DNA from: a virus
Length of the DNA: 18,664 nucleotides
Virus genome (UHGV): UHGV-0257810
Reading direction: 5' to 3' (one strand)
The position numbers and the translations under genes were made by a program. The notes beneath the pieces are model-generated. The model was not told where the DNA came from, did not search any database, and saw only the letters and a list, made by a program, of their open reading frames with translations. Positions 11,428 through 18,410 of the stretch are shown here, in pieces. Every line of letters begins with the position of its first letter. Within the stretch, counting starts at the first letter, position 1.

Positions 11428-13821
11428 ATGGCTAATTACCGTGATTTGTTAGAGCAGGCTGGCGCACGTTACGGTGTGCCAGAAGGGTTGATGACTGCAC
11501 TGGGTGCCAAGGAGTCTTCTTACAACCCTGCCGCAGTAAGCTCCGCCGGGGCTGTAGGATTGACTCAGGTCATGCCTGGGACATGGCGTGATATGGGTTA
11601 TACCGATGAGCAAATGCAAAACCCCGAATATCAGGCTGACGCTGGCGCGCGCTATCTGGCAAAGATGTACCAGCAGTTTGGTAACTGGCGTGACGCTCTT
11701 CAGGCTTATCACGACGGTCCCGGCAACGTTATGAAGGCAAAGCGTGGTGAATATACGCCAGGACCTGAAGGCCGCGGTTACGTTGATGATCGCTTTGCTC
11801 AATGGGCGGGTGACCCGGTGACAGACTCAACAGTCGAACAGCGCGCCACCTCTGCAAAGGTACATCCTCAGCAAGACCCTAACAACCCGTTTGCACAACT
11901 GGAAGCACAGTCATCCGAACAAGTATCGGCATCAGGCGTGCAGTCAGACCAAAATAATCCATTTGCTCAGATTGAGCAGCAGGCAGCCAGTCAGCAGCCA
12001 CCTCAACCCGTAAGTTCTGTCGCACCGAAACCTGTTCAGCAGCAAGGCGGAATAATGTCTGACCTTGGTAATGGACTTGCTGAAACCGGGCGCGGCTTAC
12101 TACAGGCAGGAATCAACGTAGCGAACATACCTGCTGAACTCACTGATGCTGTAACAAGCGCGGCGGCTTGGGCTGGAGGTAAACTCGGCATTGGCGATGG
12201 TACATATCAACCAGCACCACGAGTAACAACGCAGGGATTAGAGCAGGACTTTGGCCTTCAGCAAGGCGCGCTGACTCCACAAACGACAGAGGGAAGGGTA
12301 TTTGCTGAAGCATTGCCTTACCTCACTCCTGCTGGCGTTGAGAGAGCGGCAACACAGGCACCAACACTTGCTGGTCGAATTGCTCAGGGTGCAACTCGTC
12401 TTCTAGCAGAAAACGCAGTTGGATCACTTGCTGCAAACAGTGCGAAAGATGATGCGGAAGCACTCGCCACCGATTTAGGCGTTGGTGTGCTGGCTGGCGG
12501 TGCTATTAACGCTGCCGGACGTGGATTAGGTGCTGCTTATCGTGGTGTTCGTGGTTCGATAGCACCAGAAGCTCAACAGGCTATCAGGTTTGCAGAGCGT
12601 GAAGGAGTTCCTCTGCACACCACAGACCTGTTACAGCCTACTTCCCGCGTCGGGAAAATGGCGCAGACTACAGCAGAAAATATCCCCCTGGCTGGCACAA
12701 GCGGAATGAGAGCAACGCAACAGGAAGCGAGAAGCCAGTTGGTGCAGAGATTTGCCGATAAATTCGGTGAGTATGATCCAGCGGTTGTTATTGACAGCCT
12801 TAAAGCGAAAACATCAGGAATTCGTCGTGCCGCCGGTAATCGACTGGAGCAGGTTCAGAATGCTATGGCTGGAGTAAACATTCAGCCTGCGCGAGCAATT
12901 CAGCAGATTGATACAGAAATATCTAATCTGCAGAAGCTTGGTAAGGTCGCCGATAACGAGACTATTTCAAAACTTCAGTCCTATCGTGATGAGCTTGTTC
13001 GCAATGCTGGTCCTGATGGTCCGGTAAATCTGGATTTGAAGCAATTAAGCGATCTGCGCAGCCAGTTCAGAATGGACGTGAAGGGGGAACGACCAGTGTT
13101 GCCAAACCGTTCCGATGCTGCCATTCAGCGCGTTTACAAGGCGATGACAGACGATATCAATGGTGCCATTGGTCAGAATCTTGGCAACGATACTCTCCGT
13201 AAATATCAGCAGGCCAATGCCGTCTACGCTGACGAAGCGGCGAAACTAAAGAATACCAGGCTGAAGAATGTTCTCATGAAAGGCGACCTGACGCCGGAAG
13301 TTGTCAACAACATGCTATTCAGCAAGAACAAATCGGAAATTAAGACGCTGTATAACTCAGTTGGTCGTGTTGGCAGGGCGCAAATGCGCAATGGCATCAT
13401 TGGAAAGGCGATGGAGAAATCAGGTGGTTCCCCTGACCAGTTCCTTCGGCAGCTTAACATCCTGCAAAACCAGACTGGCATCACATTTAAGGGGCAGGAC
13501 GCTGCTTATCTGAAAGGATTAAAAAACTATCTGCAATCCACGCAGCAGGCTGCAAAAGCGGCAGTAACAACACCCACAGGGCAGCAAACTATCCCGTTCA
13601 TTATTGGGTATGGGACGGCAATGAACCCGGCGACAACTGGCACAGCAGTAAGCTACGGACTTCTTACTCGCGCCTATGAGAGCGAGCCATTCAGAAATGC
13701 AATGCTCCGAATGGCAAACACCCCACGCGGATCGACAGCGTTTGAGAAAGCCATGCAGCAAGCGCAAAAAGCGATTAATGCACTGACGCAGGGTGCTAAG
13801 TCTGATTCGTTGTCAGAATAG
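11428..13821 (+). CDS. Ejection protein, P22 gp16 type, with N-terminal SLT-family lytic transglycosylase domain
   Basis: 797 aa, against 609 aa recalled for P22 gp16. The first ~120 aa carry family-1 lytic transglycosylase motifs (catalytic-type ES in GAKESSYNP, then AVGLTQVMPGTW, then AYHDGPGN). A linker follows with a duplicated NNPFAQ-x-E-x-Q motif, then a long Ala/Gly-rich body in the gp16 position. Confidence 0.85.
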   Translation: MANYRDLLEQAGARYGVPEGLMTALGAKESSYNPAAVSSAGAVGLTQVMPGTWRDMGYTDEQMQNPEYQADAGARYLAKMYQQFGNWRDALQAYHDGPGNVMKAKRGEYTPGPEGRGYVDDRFAQWAGDPVTDSTVEQRATSAKVHPQQDPNNPFAQLEAQSSEQVSASGVQSDQNNPFAQIEQQAASQQPPQPVSSVAPKPVQQQGGIMSDLGNGLAETGRGLLQAGINVANIPAELTDAVTSAAAWAGGKLGIGDGTYQPAPRVTTQGLEQDFGLQQGALTPQTTEGRVFAEALPYLTPAGVERAATQAPTLAGRIAQGATRLLAENAVGSLAANSAKDDAEALATDLGVGVLAGGAINAAGRGLGAAYRGVRGSIAPEAQQAIRFAEREGVPLHTTDLLQPTSRVGKMAQTTAENIPLAGTSGMRATQQEARSQLVQRFADKFGEYDPAVVIDSLKAKTSGIRRAAGNRLEQVQNAMAGVNIQPARAIQQIDTEISNLQKLGKVADNETISKLQSYRDELVRNAGPDGPVNLDLKQLSDLRSQFRMDVKGERPVLPNRSDAAIQRVYKAMTDDINGAIGQNLGNDTLRKYQQANAVYADEAAKLKNTRLKNVLMKGDLTPEVVNNMLFSKNKSEIKTLYNSVGRVGRAQMRNGIIGKAMEKSGGSPDQFLRQLNILQNQTGITFKGQDAAYLKGLKNYLQSTQQAAKAAVTTPTGQQTIPFIIGYGTAMNPATTGTAVSYGLLTRAYESEPFRNAMLRMANTPRGSTAFEKAMQQAQKAINALTQGAKSDSLSE

Positions 13822-13911: not shown

Positions 13912-14397
13912 TTATCTGATGTTACTGCTACTGTTGCATGTGACTGTATTTCCAAACCCTGAATTGCAGTTTGTGTAAGTGTCAACTCGTGTTGGATAGG
14001 GTTGAGTTATAACAGGCTGTCTCGCTTTTTGCTCGATCGCTTGCATTGTGTTTACAGCCTGATAATTCAATAAAGCCTGCTGGAATGCTTGGCTTTGTGC
14101 TATTTGTTGTGCTTGTTCTTGGCTTTGTAATTGAACATAAAGATTCTGAAGCTCAAGTCTTGCCTGTGCGTCACTTATCTTGCCTTCATCGACACCTTGC
14201 CCGAGCATCTTTGCAGCAAGGACATACAGTTTAGGTGTTGGTGCTGATGCCATGCGTGAGTCGTTCTTCACACTGGCATCAAGGCAATTAGCCATATCGC
14301 TAAGCTTTTGATAGCGTTGTTCGCAACTTGCTTGATAGTCACTTACTTTTGCGCATCCAACCAGCAGAAGCGGGATAATTAACAGTGATTTTTTCAT
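13912..14397 (-). CDS. Predicted lipoprotein of unknown function (accessory, moron-like)
   Basis: Start taken at the internal Met (ATG 14397-14395) because AAGGAGAG lies 8 nt upstream and it yields a classic signal peptide with lipobox (MKKSLLIIPLLLVGC). The mature ~137 aa has a Gln-rich helical segment and a Cys-containing C-terminus. Local GC is visibly lower than the flanking structural genes. Confidence 0.7.
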   Translation of the reverse strand: MKKSLLIIPLLLVGCAKVSDYQASCEQRYQKLSDMANCLDASVKNDSRMASAPTPKLYVLAAKMLGQGVDEGKISDAQARLELQNLYVQLQSQEQAQQIAQSQAFQQALLNYQAVNTMQAIEQKARQPVITQPYPTRVDTYTNCNSGFGNTVTCNSSSNIR

Positions 14398-14454
14398 ATG
14401 GTTAACTCTCCTTAGTTTTTCACAGGATAGCATGAAGGCAATGCCATTTTAGCC

Positions 14455-14482
14455 GGAAACTAGATTTCTATGTTTCCTTTTT
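14455..14482 (+). terminator. Possible plus-orientation hairpin with T-run, overlapping the mnt stop codon
   Basis: GGAAAC (14455-14460), 11-nt loop, GTTTCC (14472-14477), then TTTTTATTATT on the plus strand. On the minus strand the hairpin is not followed by a U-tract, so it would not terminate the mnt transcript. Confidence 0.3.
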
Positions 14483-14734
14483 ATTATTGCTATACATGGT
14501 CTTAAGCGTTTCAAAAACCATTTTCTTAACCATATCAGATTGTTGTTCTGCCATACGCTCTGCATCGTCAATGTAAACGGATGCAGAGCTTTGTTTAGAC
14601 AACGATTCTTCAATCGCTGCAATTATCTCTGAGTTCAGCGATCTGTTATTCATCTTCGCACGCTGCTTAATTTTCGCGTGGAGTTCATGCGGAAGTCTCA
14701 AGTGAAACTGCGCCTCATCGTATTTGCTGTACAT
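14468..14734 (-). CDS. mnt: Mnt-like ribbon-helix-helix (Arc/MetJ family) repressor
   Basis: FHLRLPHELHAKIKQRAKMNNRSLNSEIIAAIEESL is a canonical RHH DNA-binding motif. The C-terminus AERMAEQQSDMVKKMVFETLKTMY parallels the P22 Mnt tetramerisation tail as recalled. Start chosen at ATG 14734 (GAGG 8 nt upstream, 88 aa); the first in-frame ATG at 14767 would give 99 aa. Confidence 0.85.
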   Translation of the reverse strand: MYSKYDEAQFHLRLPHELHAKIKQRAKMNNRSLNSEIIAAIEESLSKQSSASVYIDDAERMAEQQSDMVKKMVFETLKTMYSNNKKET

Positions 14735-14807
14735 CCTTGATGCCTCACCAGTTGGGTGGAATGGCATCGTAACCTACTGGATAAATACTCAATAGTACCA
14801 TTTCGGT

Positions 14808-14830
14808 ATGCAATCACATCATGGTTGCAT
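14808..14830. promoter_or_regulatory. Inverted repeat ATGCAA-N11-TTGCAT in the mnt/tailspike divergent intergenic region (candidate operator)
   Basis: Read directly: ATGCAA at 14808-14813 and its reverse complement TTGCAT at 14825-14830, about 30 bp upstream of the tailspike start and between two divergent genes. Function is not established. Confidence 0.25.
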
Positions 14831-14855
14831 CATATCATTCGTCTGGAGAAATGAA

Positions 14856-16937
14856 ATGTCAGATATCACCGCAAATGTTGTGGTAAGCATGCCTTCGCAA
14901 CTCTTCACTATGGCTCGTTCTTTTAAAGCCGTAGCCAATGGCAAAATTTATATCGGTAAAATTGACACTGACCCGGTAAATCCAGAAAACCAGATTCAGG
15001 TTTATGTAGAGAACGAAGAAGGCTCTCATGTTCCTGTATCGCAACCAATCATCATTAACGCTGCTGGATATCCGGTATATAACGGACAGATTGCCAAGTT
15101 CGTAACTGAGCAAGGCCATTCTATGGCTGTTTATGATGCGTATGGGGCGCAGCAGTTCTATTTTCCGAATGTTATAAAGTACGATCCAGATCAATTTAAA
15201 CAAGAGTTATCTAGTAATTCTGGAGCTTCATTAATAGGAACAGAGTCAGGAAAAACTGTTCAGGATGAATTGGATGAAATAGATAGAGATATTTCTCTTA
15301 ACAATATTTTATCTCATGAAAAAAATAGATTTAACTTTATCTTTTCACACTACTACAAACGTACTTTTAATAATGATTTAAGACTGCAATTACAGAGCTA
15401 TGTCGATGGGATTTATAATTTTGCCCCCAAAAGCGTATCTCTACCCAGTGGAAGATTAGTAACTATCTATACGGTAAAGGAAGGTGCCAATTCTGACCCC
15501 GGACAAGATGGTACCCCAATGCATATTGACTTCATGATTTCCGACGATAACGGGGTCAACTGGACGCAAACAGGTACTGTAGTTAATAAGGGTGTAGGTT
15601 ACGCTACATCTGAAACAATTCTATTCCTCAATAACAATGACGGGTATCTGTACTGTTTTTTCACTTCAATGAAGGGTATAACCGGATGGGGTCACGCCCA
15701 GCAAGGTACAGACCCGGACACCACATCCACCATTGAGTATTGCGTATCTAAAGACCGCGGAGAGACATGGAGCGCGCCGGTCGATATTACAGCAGCCGTT
15801 AAGCCCGCAGGTGCGTATTTTTCATCTATCGCACCGACGCAAGCAGGATATATTAATGGTAGACCAGCGATACCCTATTACTACCTTACTACTATTTCCT
15901 CCGGGATTGTAGAAGGGTATATAACTACAGATGACGATGGAAACTACATTTACGGTGGAGATGTCAGGAAAGACACCGATGTCGATACGCTAGGAACTTC
16001 TGGCGGCGAGATTGGATTTGGCAATTTCTATGATGGAACACCTTTTGCAATTGAGCGTGCTGCCGACACAACAATCAAACCGTATAAAATCGCAATACAA
16101 AAGCTATTAATGCAAGATTCTAGTGGGAAGTGGATTGTAAAAGGACAGTTCCCTACCACTGACTGCATGGCCTCTTTTTTAAGAGTTGGTCCTGATTTTG
16201 GGTTTGATAAAGATTATCTGTTTGTGGTGGCACCAATAGGATCAACAGGACAATTTGAAGGAAGGGCTAACCTTAGATTATTTGATTGCACTAACGACTT
16301 TAATAATCCTGTTGATAAGGGCATGTTATCTGTTAGTGCTGTTGTTGAAACAGGGTATAGCTCAACTGTTCTTTTATCATCCGGGGCGATGATGAGCGTG
16401 TGGAATGGGAGACAATGGACCGTCAACAACTCTATTTATACCGTAAACAGGCTTGTAGGTAATAATGTTATACCAGTACCTTTCTGTGGAACGCTTAAAA
16501 TAGTAGACACTAACAGAACTTTCTCACAGGATATATTCGTTAACGAGCGTGTTATTGGTATTGCTGACGGGATAATGTACCGGTGGACAGGATCGGATTT
16601 TGTTAGGGAAAATGCGGCGATACCATCGAAAATAAATTCAGTTGTCTCAACGCTTAACGCCGACATGGCAGACTTGTTTTATCTTGATTCATCGTCTTCA
16701 GGTTCGACATTAACCAGTATAACCGGTGGATATATAGGTAAAACAATACGTATACTGCCACTTTCATCACTTACAGAAGTTACCCTTGTAAAACAGGCAC
16801 CCGGCGTTTCTGTTAATGACAGAATAATGTACAATACGTCGCCTAGTGTTACTAAGTACAAAACAAATGGGGAGCTTATACAATTGACTAAAACTAACTA
16901 CGGATGGTATCTGGATAAATCAGCAAACAGTGTTTAA
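14856..16937 (+). CDS. Tailspike: P22-type head-binding domain fused to an Asp-box-containing receptor-binding domain
   Basis: Start at ATG 14856 with GGAGAA at 14845-14850. The N-terminus [13 protein letters not shown]...[20 protein letters not shown]...YDPDQF matches the P22 gp9 head-binding domain as recalled (first ~113 aa). Downstream sequence is unrelated to P22 and contains Asp-box motifs SDDNGVNW (15540-15563) and SKDRGETW (15747-15770). GC drops sharply just after the YDPDQF junction (~15195). Confidence 0.9.
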
Positions 16938-17055
16938 CAAGCATTAAATAATCTCCGCTGGTATATAGAAATGCAGCGAATTTGTACAAATAAATAGTTT
17001 TACTTATTAGTTAATGCGCTATGCTATTTAATAGCTTGCATGCTGGAAACATGAA

Positions 17056-17077
17056 GCTTTGCATTCGTTTGCAAGGC
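17056..17077. terminator. Weak hairpin between convergent tailspike and int 3' ends
   Basis: GCTTTGC (17056-17062), 8-nt loop, GCAAGGC (17071-17077), with one G-U pair and short flanking T-runs. Lies in the 154-bp AT-rich gap between the convergent stop codons. Confidence 0.2.
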
Positions 17078-17091
17078 TTTGTGCTGCTTCC

Positions 17092-18249
17092 CTATGACAC
17101 CTTCTCATCAAGCCAATCCGCCCACCACTGCATCATTTCTCTGCGCTTATCGAGATACTGAGCATGGTTGTAAATCCCGCGCACAGAACCGCCGTTGGCA
17201 TGTGCCAGTTGCACTTCAATAGCGTCAGCAGGCCATTCGTGCTCGTTCATAATCGTGCTGAATTCATGCCTGAATCCGTGACCGCTTTCCAGACCCTCAT
17301 AGCCGATTTGTTTGATCACAAGTAGCACCGCGTTCTCGCAGATTGGCTTTTTCTTATCGTTGCGCCCGGCAAAAACAAACTCTGATACTGGTTTGGTGAT
17401 TGAGCTTAGCGTAGTGAGAAGTTCAACTACCTGGTCTGACATAGGAACTACATGAATTTTGCGTCCCTTCATCACACTGGCGTCGATGGTGATAATCCTG
17501 TTTTCAAAATCGACGTTCTTCCATAGCATAGAGCGAAGCTCTTTCGTTCTTAGGGCTGTGTAGCGTAAAGCTTTGGTCGCAATGAGCGATACGATACTTC
17601 CTGAAAATGTTGCCAGTGCTTTGTTGAATGCCGGGATCTGGTCTGCAGGAAGAAACGGGAAGTTCTTCTTGCGGTATCCCTTCATGGCGTCAGCAAGGTC
17701 AGGTGCTGGGTTATATTTAGCCCTGCCGGTGACAATAGCGTAACGGAAAACCTCGCCGCATCTTCTGCGGGCTTTGTTGGCTCGCTCCATTGCACCGCGA
17801 TCTTCGAATCTGCGGATTACTTCCAGCAGTTGCATCGGCTCAATATCCTGAATCTCAAGACCACCGATGATGGGTAAAATGTCGTCATCAAACATTTTGG
17901 CAAGTTCAGTTGCATAGCCTACTGACCAAACTTGCTTCTTGTGCTCGTACCATTCCTTGTAAATCGCACTAAATGAATTGTTGTTAGACGAAGCCTTTTT
18001 CGCCTTTACCGGATCGATGCCAACCGAGATGTCTTTCCTCGCGGTCCATGCTTTATCCCTTGCTTCCTGCAAAGTCATAAGCGGATATTTTCCGACGGTC
18101 AGGATTTTCTCCTTACCGTCAATCTTGTAGCGAAGCTGCCACACCTTTTTCCCGGATACAGGGACATAAAGGTACAGGCCATTACCATCGAGAAGGCGGT
18201 ATGGTTTTTCTTTCGGCTTTGCTGCTTCAATCTGCTTAACGGTGAGCAT
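17092..18249 (-). CDS. int: Tyrosine integrase, P4-like family
   Basis: N-terminal AAKPKEKPYRLLDGNGLYLYV arm-binding-type motif, and C-terminal HGFRHEF...VRGIYNHAQY consistent with a tyrosine recombinase catalytic region. The gene is transcribed away from the adjacent tRNA. Start chosen at ATG 18249 (MLTVKQIEAAKPK..., 385 aa); the track ORF extends to a GTG at 18285. Confidence 0.9.
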   Translation of the reverse strand: MLTVKQIEAAKPKEKPYRLLDGNGLYLYVPVSGKKVWQLRYKIDGKEKILTVGKYPLMTLQEARDKAWTARKDISVGIDPVKAKKASSNNNSFSAIYKEWYEHKKQVWSVGYATELAKMFDDDILPIIGGLEIQDIEPMQLLEVIRRFEDRGAMERANKARRRCGEVFRYAIVTGRAKYNPAPDLADAMKGYRKKNFPFLPADQIPAFNKALATFSGSIVSLIATKALRYTALRTKELRSMLWKNVDFENRIITIDASVMKGRKIHVVPMSDQVVELLTTLSSITKPVSEFVFAGRNDKKKPICENAVLLVIKQIGYEGLESGHGFRHEFSTIMNEHEWPADAIEVQLAHANGGSVRGIYNHAQYLDKRREMMQWWADWLDEKVS

Positions 18250-18410
18250 GGGTAAAAATCCGGTTGGTAAAATTATTTTATCCACTTTTTACCCGTCATG
18301 GAGTGCGGCTGTCAACGATCTGAAGCGAACCATGACGAACTGTGAATCTACGGAAGGCTTGATATTCAGGGGGTTTTGCGGACTGGTACGGATGGGAGCG
18401 AACTGATAAA

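Follow-up and report, generated by a model that had tools for sequence, protein, structure and literature searches.

We identified, in the 18,664-nucleotide stretch of viral DNA analysed here (UHGV-0257810, hereafter the window), a minus-strand lipoprotein gene lying between a gene-16 homolog and mnt, and we tentatively read its product, with slightly less than even confidence, as a candidate exclusion factor that is expressed from the prophage and acts at the level of the cell envelope. This reading is favoured by a combination of evidence: the genomic slot, a 5' block shared with sieA, the envelope character of the other cargoes found behind that block, the restriction of its phage clade to P22-like prophages and the transcription of a near-identical ortholog in a lysogen. 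A preliminary description of the same DNA, made from the letters alone, had proposed an exclusion or lysogenic-conversion factor that might act on incoming ejection proteins, including a transglycosylase-bearing gp16. The first part of that proposal gained support from the slot, the block, the envelope cargoes and the transcription of an ortholog, and the part concerning the gp16 transglycosylase was not supported.

The lipoprotein gene and its product

The open reading frame coincides exactly with the coordinates in Table 1, and a Shine-Dalgarno sequence (AAGGAG, 14413-14408) stands 10 nt before the ATG at 14397, bearing out the earlier claim of a minus-strand gene with a strong ribosome-binding site. 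The same ATG is the start used by homologs of other genera, which begin with MKK, and the start chosen in RefSeq. A longer frame of 173 aa, opened by an in-frame start at 14433, was discarded as an artefact, this start falling within the conserved 5' block and being unshared by homologs. The gene corresponds to PHROG 6067 ("unknown") and to RefSeq WP_000749291.1 ("hypothetical"), and its GC content is low as first described, at 0.43 compared to 0.511 for the late operon. Pairwise dN/dS was 0.042 against the copy in Salmonella phage VSe13 and 0.059 against the copy in E. coli phage Gally, and with ratios of 0.04-0.06 the lipoprotein gene is real. A homolog search returned 94 homologs across the Enterobacterales.

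Table 1. Positions in the window of the lipoprotein gene, its parts and the genes and elements next to it
Feature	Position	Strand	Description
Gene-16 homolog (ejection protein)	11428-13821	+	Convergent with the lipoprotein gene; N-terminal SLT transglycosylase domain
Lipoprotein coding sequence	13912-14397	-	161 aa, 486 bp; stop codon 13912-14
C-terminal beta-hairpin (predicted)	13921-13983	-	Residues 139-159; Cys144 and Cys154 on facing strands
Long helix (predicted)	14020-14172	-	Residues 76-126, about 50 residues; distal half Gln-rich; from AlphaFold2 and composition
Conserved helical head (predicted)	14098-14346	-	Residues 18-100; invariant Cys25 and Cys38 and most of the invariant charged residues; pLDDT >95
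Signal peptide and lipobox	14353-14397	-	Residues 1-15, MKKSLLIIPLLLVGC; Cys15 is the predicted acylated N-terminus
Conserved 5' block	14408-14436	-	TTCATGCTATCCTGTGAAAAACTAAGGAG, 29 nt; putative promoter element
mnt (Arc/Mnt-family repressor)	14468-14767	-	Pfam Arc and Repressor_Mnt; directly upstream of the lipoprotein gene

A tblastn search of a phage collection detected it in 5 of 50,697 records, all Lederbergvirus, and 186 of 5426 complete E. coli genomes (3.4%) carried it, always on the chromosome and in one, at most two, copies per genome. Carrier lineages included O104:H4, O26:H11 (EHEC O26), B7A and the Crohn's-associated LF82. A genome scan found only five loci. Within E. coli the protein was near-invariant (97-100% identity), with no sign of an arms race in its sequence.

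The N-terminus, MKKSLLIIPLLLVG immediately before the cysteine and Ala at +2, is a canonical lipoprotein signal peptide. It consists of MKK, the core SLLIIPLLL and the lipobox L-V-G-C15, which satisfies the consensus [LVI][ASTVI][GAS]C, and the ten residues SLLIIPLLLV have a mean Kyte-Doolittle hydropathy of 2.98. The lipobox is thus as textbook as had been claimed, and Cys15 did not vary among 31 close homologs, while its conservation was at least 90% across an alignment of 102 diverse ones. In the Lol pathway the residue at +2 governs sorting, and lipoproteins without Asp at this position go to the outer membrane; Ala at +2 therefore predicts Lol-dependent sorting to the outer membrane. No second hydrophobic segment was found in the mature protein, where the highest hydropathy over 19 residues was 0.47. 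Cysteines occur at residues 15, 25, 38, 144 and 154, and the four in the mature part are conserved, as expected for a periplasmic protein; Cys15, Cys25, Cys38 and Cys154, together with many charged residues, were invariant in the 31-homolog alignment.

An AlphaFold2 model built on a deep alignment (pLDDT 91, pTM 0.68) predicted short helices over residues 18-70, a single helix over residues 76-126 and a hairpin over residues 139-159. Gln accounts for 15 of the 44 residues from 84 to 127, in agreement with the Gln-rich region noticed at the outset. Among homologs the last part of the protein (residues 127-161) came in two types, …TNCNSGFGNTVTCNSSSNIR and …TTNCTTYGNQTRCQSY, which were reassorted relative to the similarity of the head domains, and this suggests that the C-terminal hairpin is an exchangeable module.

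The protein matched the PHROG 6067 profile over its whole length (E 1.6e-110, residues 1-161 on profile positions 1-161). Searches of Pfam and NCBIfam gave no family match, only signal-peptide noise; a profile search of PDB sequences yielded nothing but signal-peptide or coiled-coil noise; PADLOC-DB 2.0 assigned no family to the lipoprotein or to three relatives; and Foldseek against BFVD gave no useful fold match (best E 0.67). There was accordingly no likeness in sequence or fold to known exclusion or defence proteins in the databases searched, and no publication on the family was found in the portions of the literature covered by our search. When 1.84 billion representative proteins were searched with a profile, 248 clusters, defined at 50% identity, were recovered, 95 of them with E ≤1e-10. 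The two dozen cluster representatives inspected were 106-270 aa long (most 126-170), and nearly all had a lipobox, a helical head with two conserved cysteines, a helix whose length varies and the C-terminal consensus TTxCxxxGNxxxCxxY, which lies over the hairpin. Comprising 248 clusters, absent from Pfam and having a fold that is confidently predicted but without a solved counterpart, this is an uncurated lipoprotein family.

For close and moderate relatives, down to 32% identity, every context examined was a P22-like prophage with the gene between gene 16 and the tailspike gene, in Escherichia, Salmonella, Proteus, Providencia, Tatumella, Yersinia, Serratia and Pectobacterium. More distant relatives had other surroundings. 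Some, 23-24% identical, adjoin glmU, just downstream of it (L015 5546-10351; L012 7998-9107); one sits amid housekeeping genes, one on an element that also encodes a serine recombinase and a primase, and one on a phage-like contig beside an MmeI-type protein. These relatives outside P22-like prophages indicate that the fold is not phage-specific, and it may serve a cellular envelope role; a clear match to a housekeeping structural lipoprotein, which the preliminary description would have counted against its own reading, was not among them. In L015 the relatives lie within a glmU-glmS stretch of about 4.8 kb, which includes a gene for a HigB toxin along with several unknown ORFs and looks like a small variable island.

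The sieA site and its conserved 5' block

Genes in the window run in the order 16(+), lipoprotein(-), mnt(-), tailspike(+), integrase(-), and in P22 in the order 16(+), sieA(-), orf59a(-), mnt(-), arc, ant, 9. The position of the lipoprotein gene is held in P22 by sieA, on the same strand and likewise convergent with gene 16, so that the placement first proposed, in the sieA slot and opposite to the late operon, was correct. Over 481 aa the window gene-16 product shares 35% identity with P22 gp16 (E 3e-77). The lipoprotein itself, as had also been noted, resembles no P22 gene: BLASTP could not align it with SieA at E values up to 100, and tblastn against the phage collection, in which P22 is included, found no P22 match.

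The two proteins are nonetheless comparable in several respects. Besides slot, strand and orientation they share their size (164 aa for SieA, 161 aa for the lipoprotein) and most of an upstream sequence, and both are envelope proteins found only in P22-like prophages, and in a minority of these; of the P22-like phages sequenced, only about one in three carries SieA (PMC10883804). They differ in architecture. SieA is a multi-pass inner-membrane protein with a cytoplasmic FxRYPxEAxxFNK motif (Leavitt et al. 2024, PMC10883804), whereas the lipoprotein lacks this motif, has a cleavable signal as its only hydrophobic segment and, by prediction, is suspended from the outer membrane.

The shared upstream sequence is the 5' block, which contains an extended -10-like element (TGnTATCCT, 14432-14424) and the Shine-Dalgarno sequence of the gene. 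It is identical at 25 of 29 positions to the block before P22 sieA (L019 3838-3866), and the number of matches expected by chance was 0. In the P22 record the annotated sieA promoter abuts the 5' end of the block, and the 85 bp upstream of sieA that sufficed for functional ectopic sieA expression include it (PMC10883804). A simple scan for promoters and terminators of the window found no canonical promoter, its two promoter-like matches being what chance would give, and detected no terminator in the 70 bp that separate mnt from the lipoprotein gene. In relatives the lipoprotein gene often begins 3-17 bp past mnt.

The block accompanies the lipoprotein gene irrespective of the DNA further upstream, occurred once in each of 61 block-bearing loci and was present in more than 120 stretches among the IMG/VR matches listed. 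As a consensus of 25-29 nt, TGnTATCCTGnnnAAAACTAAGGAG, it precedes at least 13 unrelated families of small ORFs at the sieA site of P22-like phages. These cargo families were counted in 78 new loci (L105-L182), one of which had no qualifying ORF, and the cargo ORF starts 3-15 nt past the block. Among the matches listed, the lipoprotein was the commonest cargo (17 loci), followed by SieA (6 loci) and eleven other families of 62-149 aa, and 12 of the 13 families had an N-terminal signal peptide, lipobox or transmembrane segment. Ten families other than SieA and the lipoprotein were scanned and gave no Pfam match and no named PHROG. The surroundings were uniform: again among the matches listed, 67 of 68 informative block sites were convergent with the C-terminus of gene 16, and all 60 sites in which it could be seen had a divergent tailspike start upstream.

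Given the block and its interchangeable cargoes, the sieA site functions as a cassette locus that houses small envelope proteins. Its sole characterised cargo is SieA, an exclusion protein and an experimentally proven blocker of DNA injection (PMC10883804). The variable region as such was already known as the "ant moron" or immI region, in which mnt is accompanied by genes whose function is unknown (Villafane et al. 2008, PMC2629481); it houses the lipoprotein gene, and in the parts of that account available to us the lipoprotein is uncharacterised and the 5' block goes unmentioned. The 5' block common to the lipoprotein, sieA and other cargoes is new here, a conserved block with interchangeable cargo being absent from the portions of the literature on P22-like phages that we covered. 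Patchy presence, a GC content below that of the late operon and at least 13 alternative cargoes together make the lipoprotein gene a candidate moron.

Expression, target and competing functions

Transcription in a lysogen could be followed in E. coli LF82, whose prophage Gally carries an ortholog (GALLYPH_13, LF82_138) 97.5% identical to the window lipoprotein. In LB this gene gave 70 normalised reads compared to a prophage median of 15.6, second to the c2 repressor alone (PMC9928086, S1 Table). On the log2(fpkm+5) scale it stood at about 6.1 in LB, about 8 in B1/B6 (samples of bacteria without macrophages, going by the column names), and in macrophages at 10.3 after 1 h and 8.6 after 6 h, while the ejection-protein and lysis genes of Gally were near background (about 2.3-4.2) and the coat-protein gene showed a modest rise in macrophages, to about 7.4 (PMC9928086). 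The cut-off for morons in that study was 5-fold (78); GALLYPH_13, at 4.5-fold over background, fell just below it, which is why Gally was reported without morons (PMC9928086). The expectation of expression in the prophage state thus held for an ortholog, transcribed while late genes were silent, and less directly for the window, where the upstream region is different: similarity between Gally and the window stops 17 bp upstream of the ATG and Gally has no 5' block, so that its expression does not prove that of the window copy. For the latter we infer expression from the sieA-like block and the lack of a detectable terminator after mnt.

These data also bear on a lysogenic-conversion lipoprotein that would serve host fitness (survival of stress, serum or macrophages, or envelope homeostasis) with no anti-phage role, in the manner of lambda Bor, which we consider unlikely but still the main alternative. 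Relative to LB, GALLYPH_13 was induced about 18-fold in macrophages at 1 h and about 4-fold in B1/B6, the gene resides in the pathogenic lineages named above, its sequence is almost invariant, and the distant relatives in bacterial chromosomes and other mobile elements suggest a cellular envelope function. Strong induction in macrophages suits host adaptation just as well as exclusion. The right end of Gally (mnt, tailspike, GALLYPH_14 and GALLYPH_17), however, was induced jointly (PMC9928086), which means that the response may be regional and not gene-specific. A generic fitness gene would, moreover, be expected in further phage types, and the phage clade of this family is confined to P22-like prophages, at the site it has in common with sieA. 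Lambda Bor and Iss are prophage outer-membrane lipoproteins that confer serum resistance. The window lipoprotein is like Bor in being a candidate prophage moron lipoprotein that is probably expressed in the lysogen, and the Bor of prophage Perceval was induced in the same LF82 data set (PMC9928086). It is unlike Bor and Iss in being limited to one slot of one phage type, and family and profile searches found no similarity to Bor, Iss or TraT.

The partners of the lipoprotein gene were compared across 80 viral contigs in which the lipoprotein is 97-100% identical. A complete downstream gene 16 was available in 77 of the 80 and comprised three classes unrelated to one another, with 40, 22 and 12 contigs, as well as singletons; gp20 ranged from 39 to 100% identity to that of the window, and mnt was of two or three types. 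P22-type sieA, the one type searched for, was found in none of the 80 loci, consistent with the lipoprotein and sieA being alternatives at one site. The lipoprotein gene is therefore an independent module, uncoupled from the type of ejection protein made by the resident prophage, and for this reason any target it has is probably conserved. This conserved-target reading parallels SieA, whose divergent types share one specificity (PMC10883804). Such a target could lie in the host or in a constant part of the delivery machinery.

The same comparison makes it highly improbable that the lipoprotein inhibits the transglycosylase domain of an incoming gp16, much as T4 Spackle acts on gp5 lysozyme. 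The window gene 16 does bear an SLT domain, and a periplasmic protein with a helix as long as that in the model could reach the peptidoglycan. Yet SLT is a minority variant, present in about 6 of the 80 lipoprotein contigs and missing from 4 of 8 more distant gene-16 neighbours, and together with the unrelated gene-16 classes this removes the proposed link to a transglycosylase-bearing gp16. Profile, PDB and fold searches, furthermore, showed no similarity to Ivy, MliC, PliC or T4 Spackle, and the lipoprotein did not steadily co-occur with an SLT enzyme.

A role in the phage's own lytic cycle, either in spanin-like lysis or, following a proposal made for T5 Llp, in keeping progeny from ejecting abortively onto debris, is very improbable: a predicted outer-membrane lipoprotein beside virion genes and weak matches to spanin, Cor and Llp profiles, in the signal peptide only, speak for it, but the gene is transcribed against the late operon, is expressed in Gally at a time of late-gene silence, is remote from the lysis cassette, encodes no C-terminal transmembrane segment and is missing from most P22-like phages (only the 5 phage records above carry it), which argues that it is not essential. 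Rz1-type spanins are short, proline-rich lipoproteins whose genes adjoin or lie inside the i-spanin gene of the lysis cassette, and such an identity was rejected for a helical protein of 161 aa encoded on the antisense strand of the immI region.

According to the favoured reading, exclusion at the envelope, the lipoprotein would be made in the prophage state, with its lipid anchor in the outer membrane's inner leaflet and its body exposed to the periplasm, as one of many interchangeable cargoes at the sieA cassette site of P22-like phages. From there it would guard the lysogen against superinfecting phages by hindering the ejection machinery or the DNA on its way across the outer membrane and periplasm or, alternatively, by acting on an outer-membrane component that incoming phages require. 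Such protection would operate regardless of the ejection-protein type of the resident prophage. Near-invariance with no sign of an arms race, the lack of resemblance to known exclusion or defence proteins and the distant relatives outside P22-like prophages, some of them in chromosomal neighbourhoods, count against exclusion.

Outer-membrane lipoproteins that exclude phages are already known: Cor (phi80, N15, HK022) and T5 Llp block FhuA from the periplasmic side. The window lipoprotein resembles them as a small, predictably Lol-sorted phage lipoprotein with cysteines that could form disulfides and a plausible action on incoming phage. It differs in that the matches are limited to the signal peptide (phrog_1119, E 0.035, residues 1-31; PDB 8a60, E 0.27, profile positions 3-32), in being twice as long as Llp or Cor, in its predicted fold of helical head, 50-residue helix and hairpin, and in that its host phages use O-antigen whereas Cor and Llp target FhuA.

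A more specific and rather doubtful extension is that the block acts as a conserved promoter and 5'-UTR for whichever cargo occupies the cassette site, that these cargoes, at least 13 in number, are each a mechanistically different blocker of P22-type DNA delivery, and that the lipoprotein, with a fold recruited from a wider family, obstructs the trans-periplasmic conduit from the outer-membrane side by means of its helix and disulfide-bonded hairpin. If true, obstruction of the conduit from this side would be an exclusion mechanism so far undescribed, and if the lipoprotein and other block cargoes do exclude phages, they would form a natural panel of inhibitors, each suited to probing a separate step in the building of the DNA conduit that short-tailed phages run through the Gram-negative envelope. 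Presence in 3.4% of E. coli genomes, pathogens among them, and induction of the LF82 copy in macrophages mean that the gene could matter for host range in phage therapy or for host adaptation.

Neighbouring genes

The gene-16 homolog begins with its SLT domain (11428-11820, E 2.8e-25), followed by two copies of the motif NNPFAQ(L/I)E. For mnt, RefSeq places the start at 14734. The window has mnt without arc or ant, about 88 bp lie between mnt and the divergent tailspike start (14468-14855 for mnt with this gap), and the P22-type Mnt operator (AGGTCCACGGTGGACCT) is absent from the window; on these grounds Mnt may regulate something besides an antirepressor.

The tailspike gene (14856-16937) encodes a P22-type head-binding N-terminus and a receptor-binding part with a weak BNR/sialidase-like match. 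This second part has a very low GC content (0.35-0.41), and a search of 80 related viral contigs did not find it in any. Directly after the tailspike gene comes that of the integrase (17092-18285, minus strand). No gtrABC or O-acetylase genes for O-antigen modification were present in the interval between tailspike and the end of integrase (16938-18285), although P22, like the closest E. coli match (L018), carries such conversion genes at this position; we count their absence in favour of exclusion by the lipoprotein.

In prophages of Providencia, Tatumella and Pectobacterium (L007 5519-5980; L006 5604-5942; L104 4254-4980), extra small genes on the same strand were found between mnt and the lipoprotein gene. 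Two of these encode an N-terminally anchored protein of 153 aa and a signal-peptide protein of 112 aa (phrog_3870); the Pectobacterium pair, of 148 and 91 aa, comes from gene calls alone. At Gally-type loci (L002 3733-4152, plus strand; L078, L084 and L087) the divergent neighbour is a second lipoprotein of 139 aa, beginning MKRIIGVVAGAILLSGC, which is glycine-rich at its C-terminus and weakly matches the PEGA domain. In Gally this protein is GALLYPH_14, and its transcript reached a log2 value of about 11 in macrophages, the second highest in the prophage after the c2 repressor (PMC9928086).
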